A stretch of 64,000 bases of DNA, taken from Gammaproteobacteria bacterium (GTDB taxonomy: Bacteria; Pseudomonadota; Gammaproteobacteria; Natronospirales; REEB76). The notes below the pieces were generated by a model, which saw only the letters and a program-made list of their open reading frames with translations, did not search any database and was not told the origin of the DNA. The stretch is from positions 17,657-81,656 of the forward strand of contig JBAVYM010000007.1 in NCBI GenBank assembly GCA_049698775.1, read 5' to 3'. A program made the position numbers and the translations under genes. This document shows positions 484-12,527 of the stretch, piece after piece. Each line of letters begins with the position of its first letter. The first letter of the stretch is position 1.

Positions 484-1683
484 TTAGAGCGTATGGCTTA
501 AATCCCGCAAACTGAACCCGCGCAACGGCAGATCGAGATCCTTGAGAAAAGCCATGGCCTTGAAGCGCTCGCCCATCTCCTCCGGCAGAGTCAGCAGTTT
601 CACTTCTCGCGAAGTCTTCCAGTCAGTCGCCTGTTCCGCCAATTCCAGAGCCATCAGGAATTGCGCCTGGGTGGTGTAGCCCGCGAGCGTCAAACCTGCG
701 GCCGTGCCCGCTTCCGCCACCGCGGTGAAATCCACGTGCGCGGTAATATCCTGCAGACCGGGAAACAGGAAGGGATCGTCATGCGCGCGCTGGCGGTAAT
801 GGCACATGAGCGTGCCCATGTGGCGCTCGGGGTGGTAATAGGCGGCGCGCGTGTAACCGTAATCCACGAACAACAAGGCGCCGCGCGCGAGTGTGTCCGA
901 CAAACTATGGAAAAACGCCGGCAGCCGCGGACAAATCTCTGAGCGGTAATCCTCCACCAACGACACGGGCAAGGTGGCCTCGAACGCCCCCAGGGCGGCG
1001 TGCAATTCTGCGTGCGCCGATTGAAGTTGCCAGGCAAAACCGTTGCCTTTCGCAGTTACCTTGAATTCGTCGAAGCCGTCGTGCGACCGGCGAAAGCGGC
1101 TTACGGGCAGAGCATCCAGCACCTCGTTTGCCAGAATCACTCCGGAAAAAGCCTGCGGCAAATGTTCGAGCCATTGCACTCTTTCCAGCAGCACGGGCGC
1201 GCGTTCCGTCAACGTGCGCCGCTGGCGTTCACGCAGTTCCGCACTCACTTCAAGGATCAGGTAATGCCTCGGCAGGGATTTGCGGCGCGCAAGCTCCGCG
1301 AGCAGGTCCGCCGCCATGACACCGGAACCCGCGCCCAGTTCCAGGATATCGCCAGCACCGAGCGCCGCGAGTATTTCGGCAGACTGTAGCGCGAGGCAGC
1401 GGGAAAACAGCGGCGACAACTCCGGCGCGGTTACAAAATCCCCGGCCGCACCGAATTTGCGTGCGCCGGCGCTGTAATAGCCGAGACCCGGCGCGTACAG
1501 CGCCAGTTCCATGTAGCATTCGAAGCCGATGGCGCCGCCCTGCGCCGCGATCTCGGCCCGAATCCGCGTGCTCAGGCGTTCGCTGTGGGCGAGAGCGTCC
1601 GGCGAAGGCTCCGGCAGTTCCTGGATGGATTGGCGGATGGACAGCACGGGTTTCTGGTTTAATGAGCGCAGGCTTGAGGTCAC
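484..1683 (-). CDS. class I SAM-dependent methyltransferase, MidA/NDUFAF7 (DUF185)-like
   Basis: 399-aa ORF with ILELGAGSG SAM-binding motif. Family assignment is from memory of MidA-like proteins. Confidence 0.7.
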   Translation of the reverse strand: MTSSLRSLNQKPVLSIRQSIQELPEPSPDALAHSERLSTRIRAEIAAQGGAIGFECYMELALYAPGLGYYSAGARKFGAAGDFVTAPELSPLFSRCLALQSAEILAALGAGDILELGAGSGVMAADLLAELARRKSLPRHYLILEVSAELRERQRRTLTERAPVLLERVQWLEHLPQAFSGVILANEVLDALPVSRFRRSHDGFDEFKVTAKGNGFAWQLQSAHAELHAALGAFEATLPVSLVEDYRSEICPRLPAFFHSLSDTLARGALLFVDYGYTRAAYYHPERHMGTLMCHYRQRAHDDPFLFPGLQDITAHVDFTAVAEAGTAAGLTLAGYTTQAQFLMALELAEQATDWKTSREVKLLTLPEEMGERFKAMAFLKDLDLPLRGFSLRDLSHTL

Positions 1684-1694
1684 AAGGCAGAGTT

Positions 1695-2447
1695 ATGAGA
1701 AATGATACCCGAACGCTCAGCGGCAAAACCGCACTCATCACCGGCGCGGCGCGGCGCATTGGCGCGGTGGTCGCGCGGCGGCTGCACGCGGAAGGCATGA
1801 ACCTGGTACTGCATTACCGCAGTTCGGAACAAGATGCCAAAGCCCTGTGCCAATCCCTCAATGCGACACGTCGCGATTCGGCAGTGCTCGCGCAGGCGGA
1901 CCTGGCGGAGGTGGACGGTTTTGTTTCACTCATCAAAACCGCCCTGCAATGGGGCAGCCTCGACCTGCTGGTGAACAATGCCTCCACGTTTTATCCCACG
2001 CCCATTGGCAAGGTGAGCGAGCCGGATTGGGACAATCTCATGACCAGCAATCTCAAGGCGCCGTTCTTTCTGTCGCAGGCCGCGGCGCCGCATCTCAAGC
2101 AAAGCCACGGCGTCATCATCAACATGGTGGACATCCATGCACGCCGCCCCTTGCGCGAACACACCGTGTATTCCACCGCCAAGGCCGGCTTGGCCATGCT
2201 GACCCTTTCGCTGGCGCGGGAACTGGGGCCGGAGGTGCGCGTGAACGGCGTCGCCCCCGGTCCGATCCTGTGGCCTGCACAAGGACTCGATGAGAACGCC
2301 AAGCAAGCCATCCTCGACAACACCGCGCTCAAACGCGCCGGCTCGCCGGACGACATCGCTGGCGCCATCGTCTATCTGATGCGCGATGCGGAGTACGTCA
2401 CCGGCCAGATTCTGGCGATTGATGGAGGGCGGAGTATTGGTTGGTAG
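1695..2447 (+). CDS. short-chain dehydrogenase, pteridine reductase (FolM/PTR1-like)
   Basis: GKTALITGAARRIG Rossmann motif and YSTAK catalytic motif. Start set at ATG 1695 (MRNDTRT) because the upstream part of ORF 1461..2447 overlaps the divergent gene. Confidence 0.75.
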   Translation: MRNDTRTLSGKTALITGAARRIGAVVARRLHAEGMNLVLHYRSSEQDAKALCQSLNATRRDSAVLAQADLAEVDGFVSLIKTALQWGSLDLLVNNASTFYPTPIGKVSEPDWDNLMTSNLKAPFFLSQAAAPHLKQSHGVIINMVDIHARRPLREHTVYSTAKAGLAMLTLSLARELGPEVRVNGVAPGPILWPAQGLDENAKQAILDNTALKRAGSPDDIAGAIVYLMRDAEYVTGQILAIDGGRSIGW

Positions 2448-5717: not shown

Positions 5718-6728
5718 TCAAGGCGCCACAAGGCTGTCCAGCGGCCAGCGCGCGGTCACAGCCAGGGAGGCGGGCTTTGCGTCTTGCGCCAGCCGCAAGC
5801 AGCCGGCGTACGCGATCATGGCGCCGTTGTCGGTGCAAAACTCGAGACGCGGATAAAACACTTCGCCGCCGAGCTGCCGCACACGTTCTTGCAGGCGCAC
5901 GCGCAACGAACGGTTCGCACCTACGCCGCCTGCCACCACCAAACGTCGCTGGCCGGTTTCCACAAGCGCACGTTCGCATTTGATCATCAGCGTATCCACC
6001 ACCGCGTCTTCGAAAGCGCGCGCCAGATCGGCTTTGGTCTGGATGTCATCCGGCGCGGTTTTGAGCGCGGTAAGCACCGCGGTCTTGAGCCCGCTGAAAC
6101 TGAAATCCAATCCTGGCCGGTCGGTCATGGGCCGCGGCAATTTGAAGCGTCCGGCCACGCCCTGTTCCGCCAGTTTTGCCAGGGCCGGCCCGCCGGGATA
6201 GGGCAAACCCAGAAGTTTCGCCACCTTGTCGAAGGCTTCGCCGGCGGCGTCGTCCACTGACTCGCCCAGGGTCCGGTATTGCCCCACACCCCGGACATCC
6301 ACCAGCAGGGTATGGCCGCCCGACACCAGCAGCGCCACGAACGGAAAGGCCGGTGATGGGGTTTCGAGCATAGGTGCGAGCAGATGGCCTTCCATGTGGT
6401 GGATGCCGATGGCGGGAATCTTCCAGGCAAAAGCCAGGGCTCGCGCCAAGCAGGCGCCCACCAACAAGGCGCCCATGAGGCCGGGGCCGGCGGTATAGGC
6501 AATGCCGTCAATCTGTTCGGGGCGGGTGTCCGCCTCGGCGAGCGCCATGCGGATCATGGGCAGCAGCTTGCGGATGTGGTCTCGCGAGGCGAGTTCCGGC
6601 ACCACGCCACCATATTCGGCATGCAGCGGAATCTGACTGTACAAGGCATGCGCCAACAGCCCGCGTTCGGCGTCATACACGGCGACGCCGGTTTCATCAC
6701 AGGAGGTTTCGATGCCCAAGACCCGCAT
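5718..6728 (-). CDS. tsaD: tRNA N6-adenosine threonylcarbamoyltransferase
   Basis: 336 aa with [15 protein letters not shown]-terminus and HHMEGH motif. Divergent from rpsU, as in many Proteobacteria. Confidence 0.95.
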
Positions 6729-7628: not shown

Positions 7629-7708
7629 GGTGAGGAGTGAGGGGTGAGGAGTGAGGAATAAATGCCTTGCTCATGCCTGCTCCTCACCCTTCACGCCTCA
7701 CCCCTCAC
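7629..7708. repeat. imperfect 28-nt inverted repeat built from GTGAGGR heptads, 23-nt loop
   Basis: Left arm GGTGAGGAGTGAGGGGTGAGGAGTGAGGA (7629..7657). Right arm TCCTCACCCTTCACGCCTCACCCCTCAC (7681..7708). 24 of 28 positions are complementary. It sits 8 nt upstream of the dnaG ATG. Confidence 0.8.
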
Positions 7709-7715
7709 TGTTCAA

Positions 7716-9461
7716 ATGGCGCGTATTCCACAAGCCTTCATTGACGAACTCATCAGCCGCGTGGACATCGTGGAAGTGATTGACGCGCGCGTGCCGCTCA
7801 AAAAACACGGCCGGGAATTCACCGCGTGCTGTCCTTTCCATAACGAGAAAACCCCGTCTTTCACCGTCAGTCCCACCAAACAGTTCTTCCATTGTTTCGG
7901 CTGTGGCGTCCACGGCACCGCGCTCGGTTTTCTCATGGATTACGAACACCTGGATTTCGTGGAAGCCGTGCGCCAGCTCGCGTCCCTGGTTGGCATGGAG
8001 GTGCCACTGGACGCAGGCGAAACCCGCTCGGATCAGGTGCCGTTGTACGCCGCGCTGGATCAGGCTGCGCGTATTTACCGCGAAGCGCTCAAACACAATT
8101 CGCCGGCGATTGCGTATCTCAAACACCGCGGTCTGAGCGGCGAGATCGCGGCGGAATTCGGCATCGGTTTCGCGCCCTCAGGTTGGGACACGCTGCTCAC
8201 GGCCCTGGGCAAGGACGACGCGGCGCAAAAAAATCTGTTGGCGGCGGGGCTGGTTATCCGCAAGGATGGTGGCGGCTATTACGACCGTTTCCGCGAACGT
8301 ATCGTGTTCCCGATCCGCGACAGCCGCGGACGCATCATCGCCTTCGGTGGCCGCGTGCTGGACAAAGAGGAACCAAAATACCTGAATTCGCCGGAAACAC
8401 CGTTATTCCACAAGGGCCGGGAGCTTTACGGTTTGTATGAAGCGCGCCAGGCGCTGCGGGACATCCCGCGTTTGCTGGTGGTGGAAGGCTACATGGACGT
8501 AGTGGCGCTGCATCAGCACGGCTTGCGCTATGCCGTCGCCACGCTCGGCACCGCGACCACCGCTGATCACCTGCAACGCCTGTTCCGCGTGACCGCGGAA
8601 GTTGTGTTCTGTTTCGATGGCGACCGCGCCGGCCGGGGAGCGGCCTGGCGGGCGCTGGAAAACGTCCTGCCCGAAGCGCACGAGGGCCGGCAGATCAAAT
8701 TCCTGTTCCTGCCGGAAGGCGAAGACCCGGACAGCCTGGTGCGCAAGGAAGGCAAAGATGCCTTCGAGGCCCGCTTAAAGGATGCAGTGCCCTTGTCCCG
8801 CTTTCTCCTGGACAGCCTCGCTTCCCAAACCGACGTGAGCAGCTTGGACGGCCGGGCGCGGCTGGTGGAACTGGCCCGGCCGCACTTGGCCCGCCTGCCC
8901 GCGGGGGTCTATCGGGAAATGCTGGTGGCGGAACTCGAGCAGCGGGCCCAAGTGAATCCCGGAAAATTGTCTATGCTTAGTCAGACGCTGGCCGGGCCGC
9001 GGCCGAGGGCTGCGTCTCCAGGCCGGCCGACCCTCACGGGACCGGTCCGCAAGGCCATCGCCCTGTTGCTCAACCAGCCGGCGCTGGCGGCCTTGGCAGG
9101 CGACCCTGCAGCCCTGGAGGGCTCGGGGCTCAAGGGTGCGGAAGTGCTGAAGACGGTGCTGGAATTCGCTCTGGCCCACCCCCATATTTCCGGGGCGGGC
9201 CTGCTGGAGCACTGGCGGGACACGGAAACCGGGAGCTATTTGATGAAACTTGCCCAGGCGGAACTGGTCACCCCGGCAGAGGCCATGCCAAGCGAATTCA
9301 AGGCCGTCATGGCGGACTTGGTAGGCGGCCGACCGGATGACCGGCGCTTCATGGAATTGCGCGCGAAAGTGGAAAGCATGGGCTTTGAGGCCCTGACCGA
9401 GCCGGAAAAGCTCGAGTTTCGGCGGCTTCACATACGGCGTCCGAGCGGGCCCAAGCCATGA
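7716..9461 (+). CDS. dnaG: DNA primase
   Basis: MARIPQAFIDELISRVDIVEVI N-terminus, CPFHNEKTPSF zinc-ribbon motif and EGYMDV Toprim motif. Start at ATG 7716. Confidence 0.95.
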   Translation: MARIPQAFIDELISRVDIVEVIDARVPLKKHGREFTACCPFHNEKTPSFTVSPTKQFFHCFGCGVHGTALGFLMDYEHLDFVEAVRQLASLVGMEVPLDAGETRSDQVPLYAALDQAARIYREALKHNSPAIAYLKHRGLSGEIAAEFGIGFAPSGWDTLLTALGKDDAAQKNLLAAGLVIRKDGGGYYDRFRERIVFPIRDSRGRIIAFGGRVLDKEEPKYLNSPETPLFHKGRELYGLYEARQALRDIPRLLVVEGYMDVVALHQHGLRYAVATLGTATTADHLQRLFRVTAEVVFCFDGDRAGRGAAWRALENVLPEAHEGRQIKFLFLPEGEDPDSLVRKEGKDAFEARLKDAVPLSRFLLDSLASQTDVSSLDGRARLVELARPHLARLPAGVYREMLVAELEQRAQVNPGKLSMLSQTLAGPRPRAASPGRPTLTGPVRKAIALLLNQPALAALAGDPAALEGSGLKGAEVLKTVLEFALAHPHISGAGLLEHWRDTETGSYLMKLAQAELVTPAEAMPSEFKAVMADLVGGRPDDRRFMELRAKVESMGFEALTEPEKLEFRRLHIRRPSGPKP

Positions 9462-9555: not shown

Positions 9556-11487
9556 ATGAACGACCTGAACGAAGACAAACAATCGAAGCTCAAGCTCCTG
9601 ATCGCCAAGGGCAAGGAGCAAGGCTACCTCACGTATGCGGAAGTGAACGATCACTTGCCCAATGAGATCGTTGATCCGGAACAGATTGAAGAAATCGTTG
9701 CGATGATCAACGACATGGGCATCCCGGTGCACGAGGAAGCCCCGGACGCTGATACCCTGTTGCTGACCGATGCGGCCGCTTCCAACGCTGACGAAGAAGC
9801 TGCGGAAGAAGCTGCGGCGGCGCTCGCCGCGCTGGACGCCGAATTTGGCCGTACCACCGATCCGGTGCGTATGTACATGCGCGAGATGGGCACGGTGGAA
9901 CTGCTCACCCGCGAAGGCGAAATCCGCATCGCCAAGCGCATCGAGGAAGGCCTGACTCAGGTGCTGTCCTCGGTGGCCACCTATCCCGCTTCCTCGGCAC
10001 TGCTGCTCTCGGAATACGCCGGCGTGGCCGAAGGCCGCACCAAACTCACAGACATCATCTCCGGCTTTATTGATATGAACGCCGACATGCCGGTGCAGGA
10101 AACATCTGCCCCAGTTGCGGATGCGCCTGCTGTCACCGAAACCTTGCACACAGTGGAAGACGGCGAGGAAAGCGAGGAAGAAGAAGTTCCGGCCAAGACC
10201 AAACCCGCCAAGGCGGGCGAGGATGAGGAAAGCGACGCGGATGCAGAATCGAATCCAGCGGACACCGGACCCGATCCGGAGGAAACCGCGCGCCGCTTTG
10301 CGCAGTTGAAGAAACTGCATGACAAGGCGGTCAAGACTATCGTGAAACATGGCACCGCTCACAAGAGCACCATCCGCGTGCGCAAGCAGTTAGCCGAAAC
10401 GCTAATGCAATTGAAACTCACCCCGCGCATGACCGACATGCTCACCGGCGGTTTGCGCCATCGAGTGGACACGATTCGTGCCCACGAGCGGCAGATCATG
10501 GCCCTGTGTGTCTCCAAGGCCGGCATGCCGCGCAAGGATTTCATCAAGAGCTTTCCTGAAAACGAAACCAACACTCGCTGGATTGACCGCCAGATCAAAT
10601 CCAAACGCAAATGGTCCTCGGCGCTCGGTAGACAGAAGGAAGAAGTGATGCGGCTGCAGCACCGGCTCACCACCATCGAACACGAGGCGTATCTCTCAAT
10701 CCACGAGCTCAAGGAGATCAACCGCCAGATGTCCATCGGCGAGGCCAAAGCGCGCCGCGCCAAGAAGGAAATGGTGGAAGCCAACCTGCGTTTGGTAATT
10801 TCCATCGCCAAGAAATACACCAACCGTGGCCTGCAATTCCTGGACCTCATCCAGGAAGGCAACATCGGGCTCATGAAAGCAGTGGACAAGTTTGAATACC
10901 GCCGCGGCTACAAGTTCTCGACCTATGCAACTTGGTGGATTCGCCAGGCCATCACCCGTTCCATCGCCGATCAGGCGCGCACCATCCGCATACCAGTGCA
11001 TATGATCGAGACCATCAACAAGTTGAACCGAATCTCGCGCACCATGTTGCAGGAAATGGGCCGCGAGCCGACGCCGGACGAACTCGCGGTGAAGATGGAA
11101 ATGCCCGAGGATAAAGTGCGCAAGGTGCTCAAGATCGCCAAGGAACCCATCTCCATGGAAACCCCCATCGGCGATGACGAGGATTCCCATCTGGGCGACT
11201 TCATCGAAGATTCCTCGGTGACCTCGCCGGCGGACGCGGCCACCAATGAAAGCCTGCGGGAGCAGACGCACTCAGTGCTGGCGAGCCTTACCCCGCGCGA
11301 AGCCAAGGTGTTGCGCATGCGCTTCGGCATAGACATGAACACCGATCACACGCTGGAAGAAGTCGGCAAGCAGTTTGATGTGACCCGTGAACGCATCCGC
11401 CAGATCGAAGCCAAGGCGCTGCGTAAACTGCGGCACCCGTCGCGGTCCGACCAACTGCGCAGCTTCCTGGATGAGTCATCGTCCTAA
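9556..11487 (+). CDS. rpoD: RNA polymerase sigma factor RpoD (sigma70)
   Basis: 643 aa with an acidic region 1, [12 protein letters not shown] (region 2.3/2.4) and [27 protein letters not shown] (region 4.2). Confidence 0.98.
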
Positions 11488-11509: not shown

Positions 11510-11540
11510 AAAGGCCGCATCCAGTGCGGCCTTTGTATTT
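11510..11540 (+). terminator. intrinsic terminator of rpoD
   Basis: AAAGGCCGCA-tccag-TGCGGCCTTT (10 bp) followed by GTATTT. Confidence 0.8.
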
Positions 11541-11549
11541 AAACGGTAC

Positions 11550-11558
11550 TGTTATAAT
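11550..11558 (+). promoter_or_regulatory. extended -10 promoter element (TGtTATAAT) for the tRNA gene
   Basis: TGTTATAAT lies 18 nt upstream of tRNA position 1. No good -35 element. Confidence 0.45.
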
Positions 11559-11575: not shown

Positions 11576-11888
11576 GGGCCTGTAGCTCAGTTGGTTAGAG
11601 CAGGGGACTCATCGAAATGGTGACTCTGTGTTGAAAGATGCAGATGCAAACGGGATGAATTCAGGGAAACCTTCACGGCTTGGCCACTGGCAACCCTGAG
11701 CCAAACCGGCGGTACACCGCCGGAAGGTGCAGAGACTACCTGAGGGCTGCAGCGCCCTTAATAACAGGTTCGAGCTTCCCGCACCCTACCAGCACATGCT
11801 GCGGGTGATGAGATAGTCCACCCCTACCGGAAACGGCGGGAACATGTGAATCCCTTGGTCGAAGGTTCGAGTCCTTCCGGGCCCACCA
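11576..11888 (+). tRNA. ileX: tRNA-Ile2 (anticodon CAU, lysidine type) gene split by an intron; exons 11576..11612 and 11849..11888
   Basis: The joined exons give a 77-nt cloverleaf. Acceptor GGGCCTG pairs with CGGGCCC, followed by discriminator A and an encoded CCA. The other arms are D-arm TAGCTCAGTTGGTTAGAGCA, anticodon stem GGGGA/TCCCT, loop CTCATAA, variable TTGGTC and T-arm GAAGG-TTCGAGT-CCTTC. It is closer to E. coli ileX than to elongator Met (variable loop, C4-G69 and C5-G68). Confidence 0.85.
11613..11848 (+). ncRNA. group I (IC3-like) intron in the anticodon loop, no ORF
   Basis: Inserted between CAT and AA of the anticodon loop. A GTG guide 7 nt into the intron can pair with exon CAU. 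Core strings: GGCAAC (11689), GAGCCAA (11698), GAAGGTGCAGAGACTA (11723..11738) with GACTA pairing TAGTC (11814..11818). Also a CCG-GAAA-CGG tetraloop hairpin and a terminal G at 11848. Confidence 0.75.
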
Positions 11889-12527
11889 TTACTGACGGTA
11901 ACGGAGATATATCAGCGCTGCAACTGTATCCGCGGTCCGTGTGAATATTTCAACTGGCACAGACCGGGAAGCGCATGTTTGTTTTTCAACAAGCAGCGTG
12001 TGATGTTCATTTAATTCCAGCGGAATCGTCCCCACGCCATCCAGTAAAGCTCTGCCCTTGAAACAATAGACCAATAGAGTTTCAGTGGCTGCGCGCCAGA
12101 TCAGTGTTTGTCCTGGTTGTTTCACGATCTCGAGGTGACACGTCAGTCTCGTACGCAAGATCATCACGTTGAAATCCCGCACCAGCCCGGCGAGCAACCG
12201 GCATTGGGTGTGCCACTCGCCTTTGAAGTTGAACGGCACAAATCTCTGTTCGATGCGCTGGGGCGGGGCAGCGTCAAAGCTGAGTTCCATGCCAGCGCCT
12301 TCGGCCAGCAAGATGGTACGGTCATAACCAGGGAAGCTTGAAAACTCGCAATCGGTATCTACCCCTGCGAGACTCACGCGCCAGTCGAAAGGTTTGCCGT
12401 TCAACCCCGCGTCCGCGGGGGATGCCGCGATTTCCGTGGTCAACCCCAAGCCGTTTTTCCAGCGCATGCGGCGGTAATCGGCGAGAGTCAGAAGATGCAG
12501 GCCTGTCGCGAGCGTACGCACGGTCAC
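11889..12527 (-). CDS. HutD/Ves-family protein
   Basis: 212 aa with a YRRMRWKNGLGLTTEIA motif typical of HutD. The stop codon abuts the tRNA 3' end. Confidence 0.7.
   Translation of the reverse strand: MTVRTLATGLHLLTLADYRRMRWKNGLGLTTEIAASPADAGLNGKPFDWRVSLAGVDTDCEFSSFPGYDRTILLAEGAGMELSFDAAPPQRIEQRFVPFNFKGEWHTQCRLLAGLVRDFNVMILRTRLTCHLEIVKQPGQTLIWRAATETLLVYCFKGRALLDGVGTIPLELNEHHTLLVEKQTCASRSVPVEIFTRTADTVAALIYLRYRQ

Follow-up and report, generated by a model that had tools for sequence, protein, structure and literature searches.

The pre-tRNA-Ile intron of Azoarcus sp. BH72 (A. olearius) is a 205-nt group I intron of subgroup IC3 that serves as the model system for structure, and it self-splices in vitro (PMC13168695). 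On a genomic scale, 5292 introns in bacterial tRNA genes were mapped by Williams 2020, where Ile2.5Ug is named with three other classical types, all of them already contained in the group I intron database (bioRxiv 10.1101/2020.01.27.920355). The paper describing tRNAscan-SE 2.0 reports 36 genomes in which an fMet or Ile2 tRNA gene is seemingly missing owing to such introns, with Acidovorax and Burkholderia given as examples for tRNA-Ile2 (PMC8450103). A review still confines the class to cyanobacteria and the alpha- and beta-proteobacteria (PMC4033280). Within the window considered here, i.e. the whole 64-kb stretch of DNA that was analysed, positions 11576-11888 very probably constitute the orthologue, by position, of ileX in E. 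coli. This tRNA-Ile2(CAU) gene, the product of which decodes AUA, a rare codon for isoleucine, is split by an ORF-less, 236-nt group I intron whose splicing is predicted.

Organization of the split gene

The gene lies downstream of rpoD, and its features, along with those of the immediate neighbourhood, are as follows.

5718-6728, minus strand: tsaD
7662-9461: dnaG
9556-11487: rpoD
11511-11541, plus strand: putative rpoD terminator, a GC-rich hairpin (AAGGCCGCA-TCCAG-TGCGGCCTT) plus the T-rich TGTATTT, after the rpoD stop codon (read by eye)
11550-11558, plus strand: extended -10-like box TGTTATAAT, 17 nt upstream of the tRNA 5' end (read by eye, without a -35 match)
11576-11612, plus strand: tRNA-Ile2 exon 1, with the acceptor 5' strand, D arm, anticodon stem 5' strand and loop nucleotides C32 U33 C34 A35 U36 (ARAGORN on joined exons)
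11613-11848, plus strand: group I intron, 236 nt, ending ...ACATGTG (Rfam and fold)
11849-11888, plus strand: tRNA-Ile2 exon 2, with A37 A38, anticodon stem 3' strand, variable loop, T arm, acceptor 3' strand, discriminator A and encoded CCA (ARAGORN on joined exons)

Exon 1 terminates in ...GGGGACTCAT, exon 2 reads AATCCC...GGGCCCACCA, and the insertion point falls between U36 and A37, giving a loop of C-U-C-A-U / intron / A-A. When the exons are joined, ARAGORN recovers a canonical 77-nt cloverleaf that has a CAU anticodon, a 7-bp acceptor stem with one U-G pair, an anticodon stem GGGGA/TCCCT, a loop CTCATAA and an encoded CCA; in the unspliced 64-kb window, the same program finds no tRNA anywhere. 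The only coding frame inside the intron is a mechanical 42-codon TTG ORF, and there is no space for a homing endonuclease gene. A previous model-generated interpretation (hereafter, the sequence-only reading) had joined 11576..11612 to 11849..11888 into a canonical 77-nt tRNA around an ORF-less 236-nt intron, and both its join and its coordinates agree with these results.

The hairpin at 11511-11541 is likely the rpoD terminator, and TGTTATAAT is a possible promoter belonging to the tRNA gene itself; a promoter/terminator consensus scanner called nothing between 11400 and 12100. On the other side of the tRNA, a convergent HutD-family gene (11889-12527, minus strand) directly abuts the CCA end, its stop codon (11889-11891) following position 11888 with no spacer, and TetR-family and RsmJ genes come next on the same strand.

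Group I identity and secondary structure

The sole Rfam family matched in the window is RF00028 (Intron_gpI), with 69 bits and an E-value of 2e-15 on the plus strand (11601-11840), compared to a gathering score of 50 bits, and the alignment spans model positions 1-253 of 253. The short strings that had led to the group I call are all where they had been placed, including GGCAAC (11689-11694), GAGCCAA (11698-11704), GAAGGTGCAGAGACTA (11723-11738), GACTA (11734-11738) with its complement TAGTC (11814-11818), the GTG guide (11620-11622) and GAAA tetraloops in L2 (11633-11636) and L9 (11830-11833). The attribution of the core strings to Azoarcus in particular holds only in part: the strings are present, but they are general to the intron group rather than specifically Azoarcus, whose intron ranks 80th of 122 by crude BLAST score against the window intron, below introns of Asn, Leu and Arg tRNAs.

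Based on MFE folding alone (z = -2.4), P2, P6a, P7.1, P8 and P9 are recovered and the core is mispaired; a homology-based fold was therefore adopted, with P1-P9 built by hand under the guidance of the Williams 2020 seed alignment. The fold was then tested on a MAFFT alignment of 19 tRNA(CAU) introns (70 pairs, 1278 cells). Its elements, all on the plus strand, are listed below.

11609-11623: P1 hairpin, UCAU plus the intron C (11609-11613) with the guide GGUGA (11619-11623), loop GAAAU (homologues)
11625-11644: P2 with GAAA tetraloop L2 (11633-11636), all 8 pairs compensatory
11651-11657: P3 5' strand CGGGAUG, partner 11775-11781; 3 compensatory pairs, 98.5% of cells paired
11661-11699: P4 (11661-11666 with 11694-11699) around J4/5 AAA, P5/P5a (11670-11690) and J5/4 CAA; P4 100% paired and proximal P5 invariant in 19 sequences
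11700-11728: P6 (GCC/GGU) and P6a (CCGGCGG-UACA-CCGCCGG); of the first 6 P6a pairs 5 compensatory, cells 100% paired
11732-11738: P7 5' strand G-A(bulge)-GACUA, part of the guanosine-binding helix, forming a pseudoknot with 11814-11819; 6 pairs, invariant in 19/19
11739-11768: extra P7.1-like hairpin CCUG-A-GGGC-UGCAGC-GCCC-UUAAUAA-CAGG (covariation)
11775-11781: P3 3' strand CUUCCCG (alignment)
11782-11807: P8/P8a hairpin, compensatory in 2/5 and 4/4 pairs
11808-11819: J8/7 AUGAGA and P7 3' strand UAGUCC, near-invariant in 19 sequences
11820-11847: P9.0 (AC 11820-11821 with GU 11846-11847) around P9 (11823-11840), GAAA loop 11830-11833 (covariation)
11848: omega G, the last intron nucleotide and 3' splice site, directly after P9.0 in 18/19 homologues

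In this alignment, 94.2% of the 1278 cells are paired, as opposed to 36-43% when the 3' partners are slid, and none of 500 shuffles matches the observed value on any of five measures. Compensatory changes occur in 34 of the 70 pairs, with 8/8 in P2, three in P3, five in P6a, two in the extra hairpin, six in P8/P8a and six (i.e. every pair) in P9. P1, P4, P6 and P7 are near-invariant and speak neither for nor against the fold; P7, being invariant, carries no covariation information, and its pairing positions (11732 and 11734-11738 with 11814-11819) agree with the layout of P7 in the Williams 2020 seed alignment. Thus, the group I call is borne out by a full-length RF00028 match above threshold and by the 19-homologue fold, a P1-P9 drawing in which a consistent, covariation-backed P3-P8 core contains the P3/P7 pseudoknot; the covariance search and the folding were both checks that the sequence-only reading had proposed.

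The two splice sites are defined by P1 and P9.0. In P1, the C-G, A-U, U-G and C-G pairs are present in 19/19 homologues; the pairing of C34 (11610) with G11622 is invariant, and a U-G wobble, U11612-G11620, puts the 5' splice site after U36, where it had been predicted. In P9.0, the two nucleotides after the P7 3' strand pair with the two before the terminal G, being paired in 94.7% of cases against 3-42% for slid partners (19 homologues), with exchanges of AU/GU/GC and CG/GC/AU. Because the covarying P9.0 fixes the register, omega G is 11848, which is the terminal G that had been proposed from the sequence.

The only blemish in the intron is in P3, where U11656 faces U11776; in 17 of 19 relatives, this pair is U-G. 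Such a mismatch would be expected of a locus that is a tRNA pseudogene with a splicing-dead relic of an intron, the decoding of AUA falling instead to a further copy of the gene or to a tRNA-Ile(UAU). However, the remaining core pairs are all intact, P1, P7 and P9.0 are canonical, the exons form a perfect cloverleaf, and ARAGORN detects no other tRNA within the 64 kb. Furthermore, a metagenome scan for the T variant retrieved 29 contigs from varied samples; the 25 in which both splice sites were located have introns of 229-272 nt, intact exons, the same P3 5' strand and differing T arms. Since the U-U variant is common to 29 contigs that have diverged elsewhere while keeping their exons intact, it has the look of a polymorphism that recurs and is tolerated, and the scan speaks against it as a sign of decay. 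In surveyed genomes, moreover, an intron-bearing gene is what explains a 'missing' fMet or Ile2 tRNA (PMC8450103). A dead relic is accordingly very unlikely, and an intact, intron-bearing tRNA-Ile2 gene remains the favoured reading.

Identity of the host tRNA

The CAU anticodon by itself cannot tell tRNA-Ile2 from elongator tRNA-Met, and ARAGORN calls any CAU anticodon Met. Several features nevertheless make a tRNA-Met(CAU) host highly improbable. In E. coli, the joined exons find their best matches, at 84.4% identity from end to end, in genes that carry the annotation tRNA-Ile, and the annotation of ileX in K-12 is tRNA-Ile(CAU). The acceptor stem (GGGCCUG/CGGGCCC) contains C4-G69 and C5-G68, which Ikeuchi et al. 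2005 reportedly identified as the TilS determinants separating tRNA-Ile2 from tRNA-Met; E. coli tRNA-Met has U4-A69 and A5-U68. Among the matches listed, CC occupies positions 4-5 in each of the 20 homologous genes, and a GGGCC acceptor is common to them all. The gene also occupies the ileX position after rpoD, with the order tsaD-rpsU-dnaG-rpoD-tRNA agreeing with tsaD-rpsU-dnaG-rpoD-(mug)-ileX in E. coli K-12. Compared to the window gene, ileX thus shares a closely similar mature sequence, the C4-G69/C5-G68 pairs and the tsaD-rpsU-dnaG-rpoD neighbourhood, but it has no intron, and mug lies between it and rpoD. Finally, site and type together are classed as Ile2.5Ug in Williams 2020 (bioRxiv 10.1101/2020.01.27.920355). 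Both the tRNA-Ile2 host and its ileX-like location after rpoD, as suggested by the sequence-only reading, are in keeping with these data. AUA codons are in use in the window genes (23 in 8262 codons, including two in rpoD and one in dnaG), and so the organism needs a tRNA-Ile2 decoder.

A tRNA-Gln(CUG) product, with boundaries 2 nt upstream (intron 11611-11846), is what ARAGORN reports in its intron mode, as tRNA-Gln(ctg) i(36,236), and 11846 is likewise a G, but this option is hardly credible, as it leaves a C at -1 and no U-G wobble, breaks the covarying P9.0 register against omega G, and assigns to tRNA-Gln a body (G1-C72, A73) that is ileX-like and unlike tRNA-Gln, the identical artefact giving a Gln, Arg or Ser label to 18 of the 20 homologous genes among the matches listed.

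As it slides the boundaries, the intron mode of ARAGORN was rejected as a classifier of host tRNAs. The tRNA-Ile2 genes that it mislabels as Gln(ctg), Arg(ccg) or Ser(cga) include those of the window and of loci L006, L030, L031, L039, L040, L069, L086, L096, L098, L111-L113 and L115-L117.

Two intron classes at one site

Among the matches listed, the fetched introns fall into two structural classes. In class 1, P7 runs directly into the P3 3' strand (GACUA-GAC-GG...), J8/7 reads GAAGGSAUAGUCC, and the P3/J3-4 segment is not GGRUGAAUUC. In class 2, a hairpin stands between P7 and the P3 3' strand, J8/7 reads GAUGAKAUAGUCC, P3/J3-4 is GGRUGAAUUC, and the motif GATGAGATAGTCC marks the class. The class 1 members in tRNA-Ile2 are Azoarcus, a Polynucleobacter (L005) and L107, whereas the window intron and 17 of the 20 Ile2 loci among the matches listed are class 2; the latter class is common in the Gammaproteobacteria at the same gene and site. 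In the window, the gap between P7 and the P3 3' strand (11739-11774) is filled by a 30-nt hairpin and a 6-nt linker, unlike the helix-free junction of class 1. The gamma-type hairpin has the consensus CCUG-R-GNNC-(loop)-GNNC-UURAUNA-CAGG; its outer 4 bp are invariant, and each of the four inner pairs forms in 33-34 of 34 distinct sequences, with exchanges of GC/AU/CG and AU/GC/GU.

The Azoarcus intron, whose sequence was taken from Williams' gpI.sto, resembles the window intron in its host gene, splice site, CAU/GUG P1 with U-G, GAAA loops in P2 and P9, and P3-P9.0 core, as well as in the strings GAGCCAAG...GAAGGUGNAGAGACUA...AUAGUCC. However, it has no hairpin between P7 and the P3 3' strand, and it differs in J3/4 (AAAUU compared to AAU in the window) and in J8/7 (GAAGGCAUAGUCC compared to GAUGAGAUAGUCC). 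Azoarcus also carries canonical CCUAAG/UAUGG receptors, in P8 and P5, for docking of the GAAA loops L2 and L9; these are not evident in P8 and P5 of the window, the internal loops of which (CCCUAC/C and CCUUCAC/ACUGG, respectively) differ, by sequence comparison, from the canonical 11-nt receptor. The hairpin at 11739-11768 accounts for the extra ~30 nt relative to Azoarcus (236 versus 205 nt, a difference of 31 nt). An intron about 30 nt longer than that of Azoarcus, possibly with an additional peripheral helix, had been guessed from the sequence alone, and the helix is indeed there, conserved and with covariation.

Hairpin-bearing introns also exist in other tRNAs, as exemplified in Williams' seed alignment by Mga42.Leu.1Ug, Pam37.Asn.4Ug, Dba165.Lys.2Ug and Mba55.Phe.2Ug. 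Two cyanobacterial Asn(GUU) introns, L003 and L017, have a P7.1-like hairpin as well. All these introns share with the window the extra helix after GAGACUA, the GGGUG/GGAUG-AAUUC P3/J3-4 motif and GAUGAGAUAGUCC, and Mga42.Leu.1Ug carries ccug...uaauaa...cagg, as does the window hairpin. They differ in their host tRNA and position within the loop, the window type being specific to tRNA-Ile2. By crude BLAST score, the nearest to the window intron among the matches listed are 14 gamma-type Ile2 introns (105-213 bits), followed by cyanobacterial tRNA-Asn introns (~90 bits), with the class 1 introns L005, L107, L027 and L048 ranking 117th-122nd.

The class 1 locus L005 likewise contains both rpoD and a split tRNA gene; the two classes therefore seem to occupy one site of the same orthologous gene. 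Given that the class 2 introns are more similar to introns from other tRNAs than to the class 1 Ile2 introns, it might be that two lineages at a single rpoD-linked tRNA-Ile2 position reflect repeated, independent capture or replacement by ORF-less introns, e.g. through CAU/GUG-guided reverse splicing, although we regard this as a tentative and rather unlikely scenario. If true, it would also fit with long-term retention, in that the locking of C34 in P1 would let splicing act as a checkpoint for how much AUA decoder is supplied.

Distribution of the intron type

A scan of 185,579 species genomes with the core pattern GAGCCAA N10-40 AAGGTGNAGAGACTA yielded at least 120 loci, and the matches listed comprise introns in tRNA-Leu, Arg, Asn, Ser, Thr, Phe and others, from many phyla. 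At least 20 tRNA(CAU) genes (20 of 120 matches listed) are split at exactly the site used in the window, and their hosts, among the matches listed, are Woeseiaceae, Steroidobacteraceae, Lysobacter, Rhodanobacteraceae, Pseudomonadales-type MAGs, Burkholderiales and one Runella. Of these 20 related loci, 11 have rpoD and the split tRNA together. The closest intron found is ~83% identical to that of the window, and the best identity of rpoD to any fetched locus is ~68%, again among the matches listed. For unassigned ('?') loci, every U/G splice combination was tried in the search for split tRNAs, mostly unproductively.

With its tRNA-Ile2 host, insertion between loop nucleotides 5 and 6, U at -1 and G at omega, the window intron has the features that define Ile2.5Ug. 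It also resembles that class in being ORF-less and within ~200-300 nt, and nothing defining sets it apart; judged by sequence comparison, its ~83% identity to the nearest listed intron makes it a new sequence within an already well-documented class. The sequence-only reading had called bacterial tRNA group I introns rare, a view that is outdated in light of the 5292 mapped by Williams 2020 and the 20 or more split tRNA(CAU) genes in the genome scan.

The same core pattern occurs at no fewer than 119 loci in IMG/VR, about 27 of the matches being in tRNA genes. Several of the latter belong to dense arrays with 25-35 tRNAs per locus, and in two the host gene is a tRNA(CAU); the viral loci concerned are L252, L256, L264, L196, L241, L255 and L270. 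According to a 2014 review, phage introns are all in protein-coding genes (PMC3984707). Among contigs binned as archaeal, L075 (Methanosarcinaceae) has a 74.9-bit group I intron match outside a tRNA (1549-1783, minus strand), and two 'Pacearchaeota' contigs (L014 and L047) have tRNA-Asn introns; Williams 2020 suspected that archaeal cases of this sort were mis-binned bacterial DNA (bioRxiv 10.1101/2020.01.27.920355). In the Bacteroidota contigs L058 (6588-7173, minus strand) and L094 (3742-4305, minus strand), a group I intron is situated within the tmRNA gene, a known arrangement. In the Logan assembly of SRR27973342, which is 100% identical to the window, the contig breaks at 11719, inside the intron and before the GAAGGTGCAGAGACTA core; the break could stem from a second intron copy that shares the core in the same genome.

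Predicted splicing pathway and its order relative to TilS

Catalysis in vivo, as well as its order relative to TilS, is predicted from the known mechanism of group I introns. In the precursor, P1 would arise through pairing of anticodon nucleotides C34-A35-U36 with the guide GGUG(A) of the intron, and P3-P9 would provide the catalytic core. Free guanosine bound in P7 would then attack after U36, at the U-G wobble, following which the terminal G11848, positioned by P9.0, would take over the same pocket. Attack by the 3'-OH of U36 after G11848 would join the exons and release the intron, with the tRNA ends being processed after exon ligation. Only upon splicing would C34 become free for conversion to lysidine by TilS and for charging of the tRNA by IleRS. 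The order of these events would be largely settled by structure; i.e. because C34 is paired with the guide in P1 in 19/19 homologues, lysidine formation should come after splicing.

Implications

The locus leaves the current understanding of group I introns and AUA decoding unchanged, and what makes it of modest interest is that its intron has a hairpin-bearing architecture and that two classes of intron coexist at a single site. To our knowledge, the hairpin-bearing class has no solved structure; the conserved asymmetric loop in the class 2 hairpin (A/G opposite UURAUNA) is a candidate for a tertiary contact. The window also contributes a further gammaproteobacterial case to a class described in review as cyanobacterial, alpha- and beta-proteobacterial only (PMC4033280). 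For the organism itself, standard tRNA finders either miss the gene, ARAGORN reporting none, or call it tRNA-Gln, such that the genome would seem to be without an AUA decoder. More broadly, automated annotation of genomes with an intron-bearing tRNA-Ile2 gene will mislabel or miss the AUA decoder.
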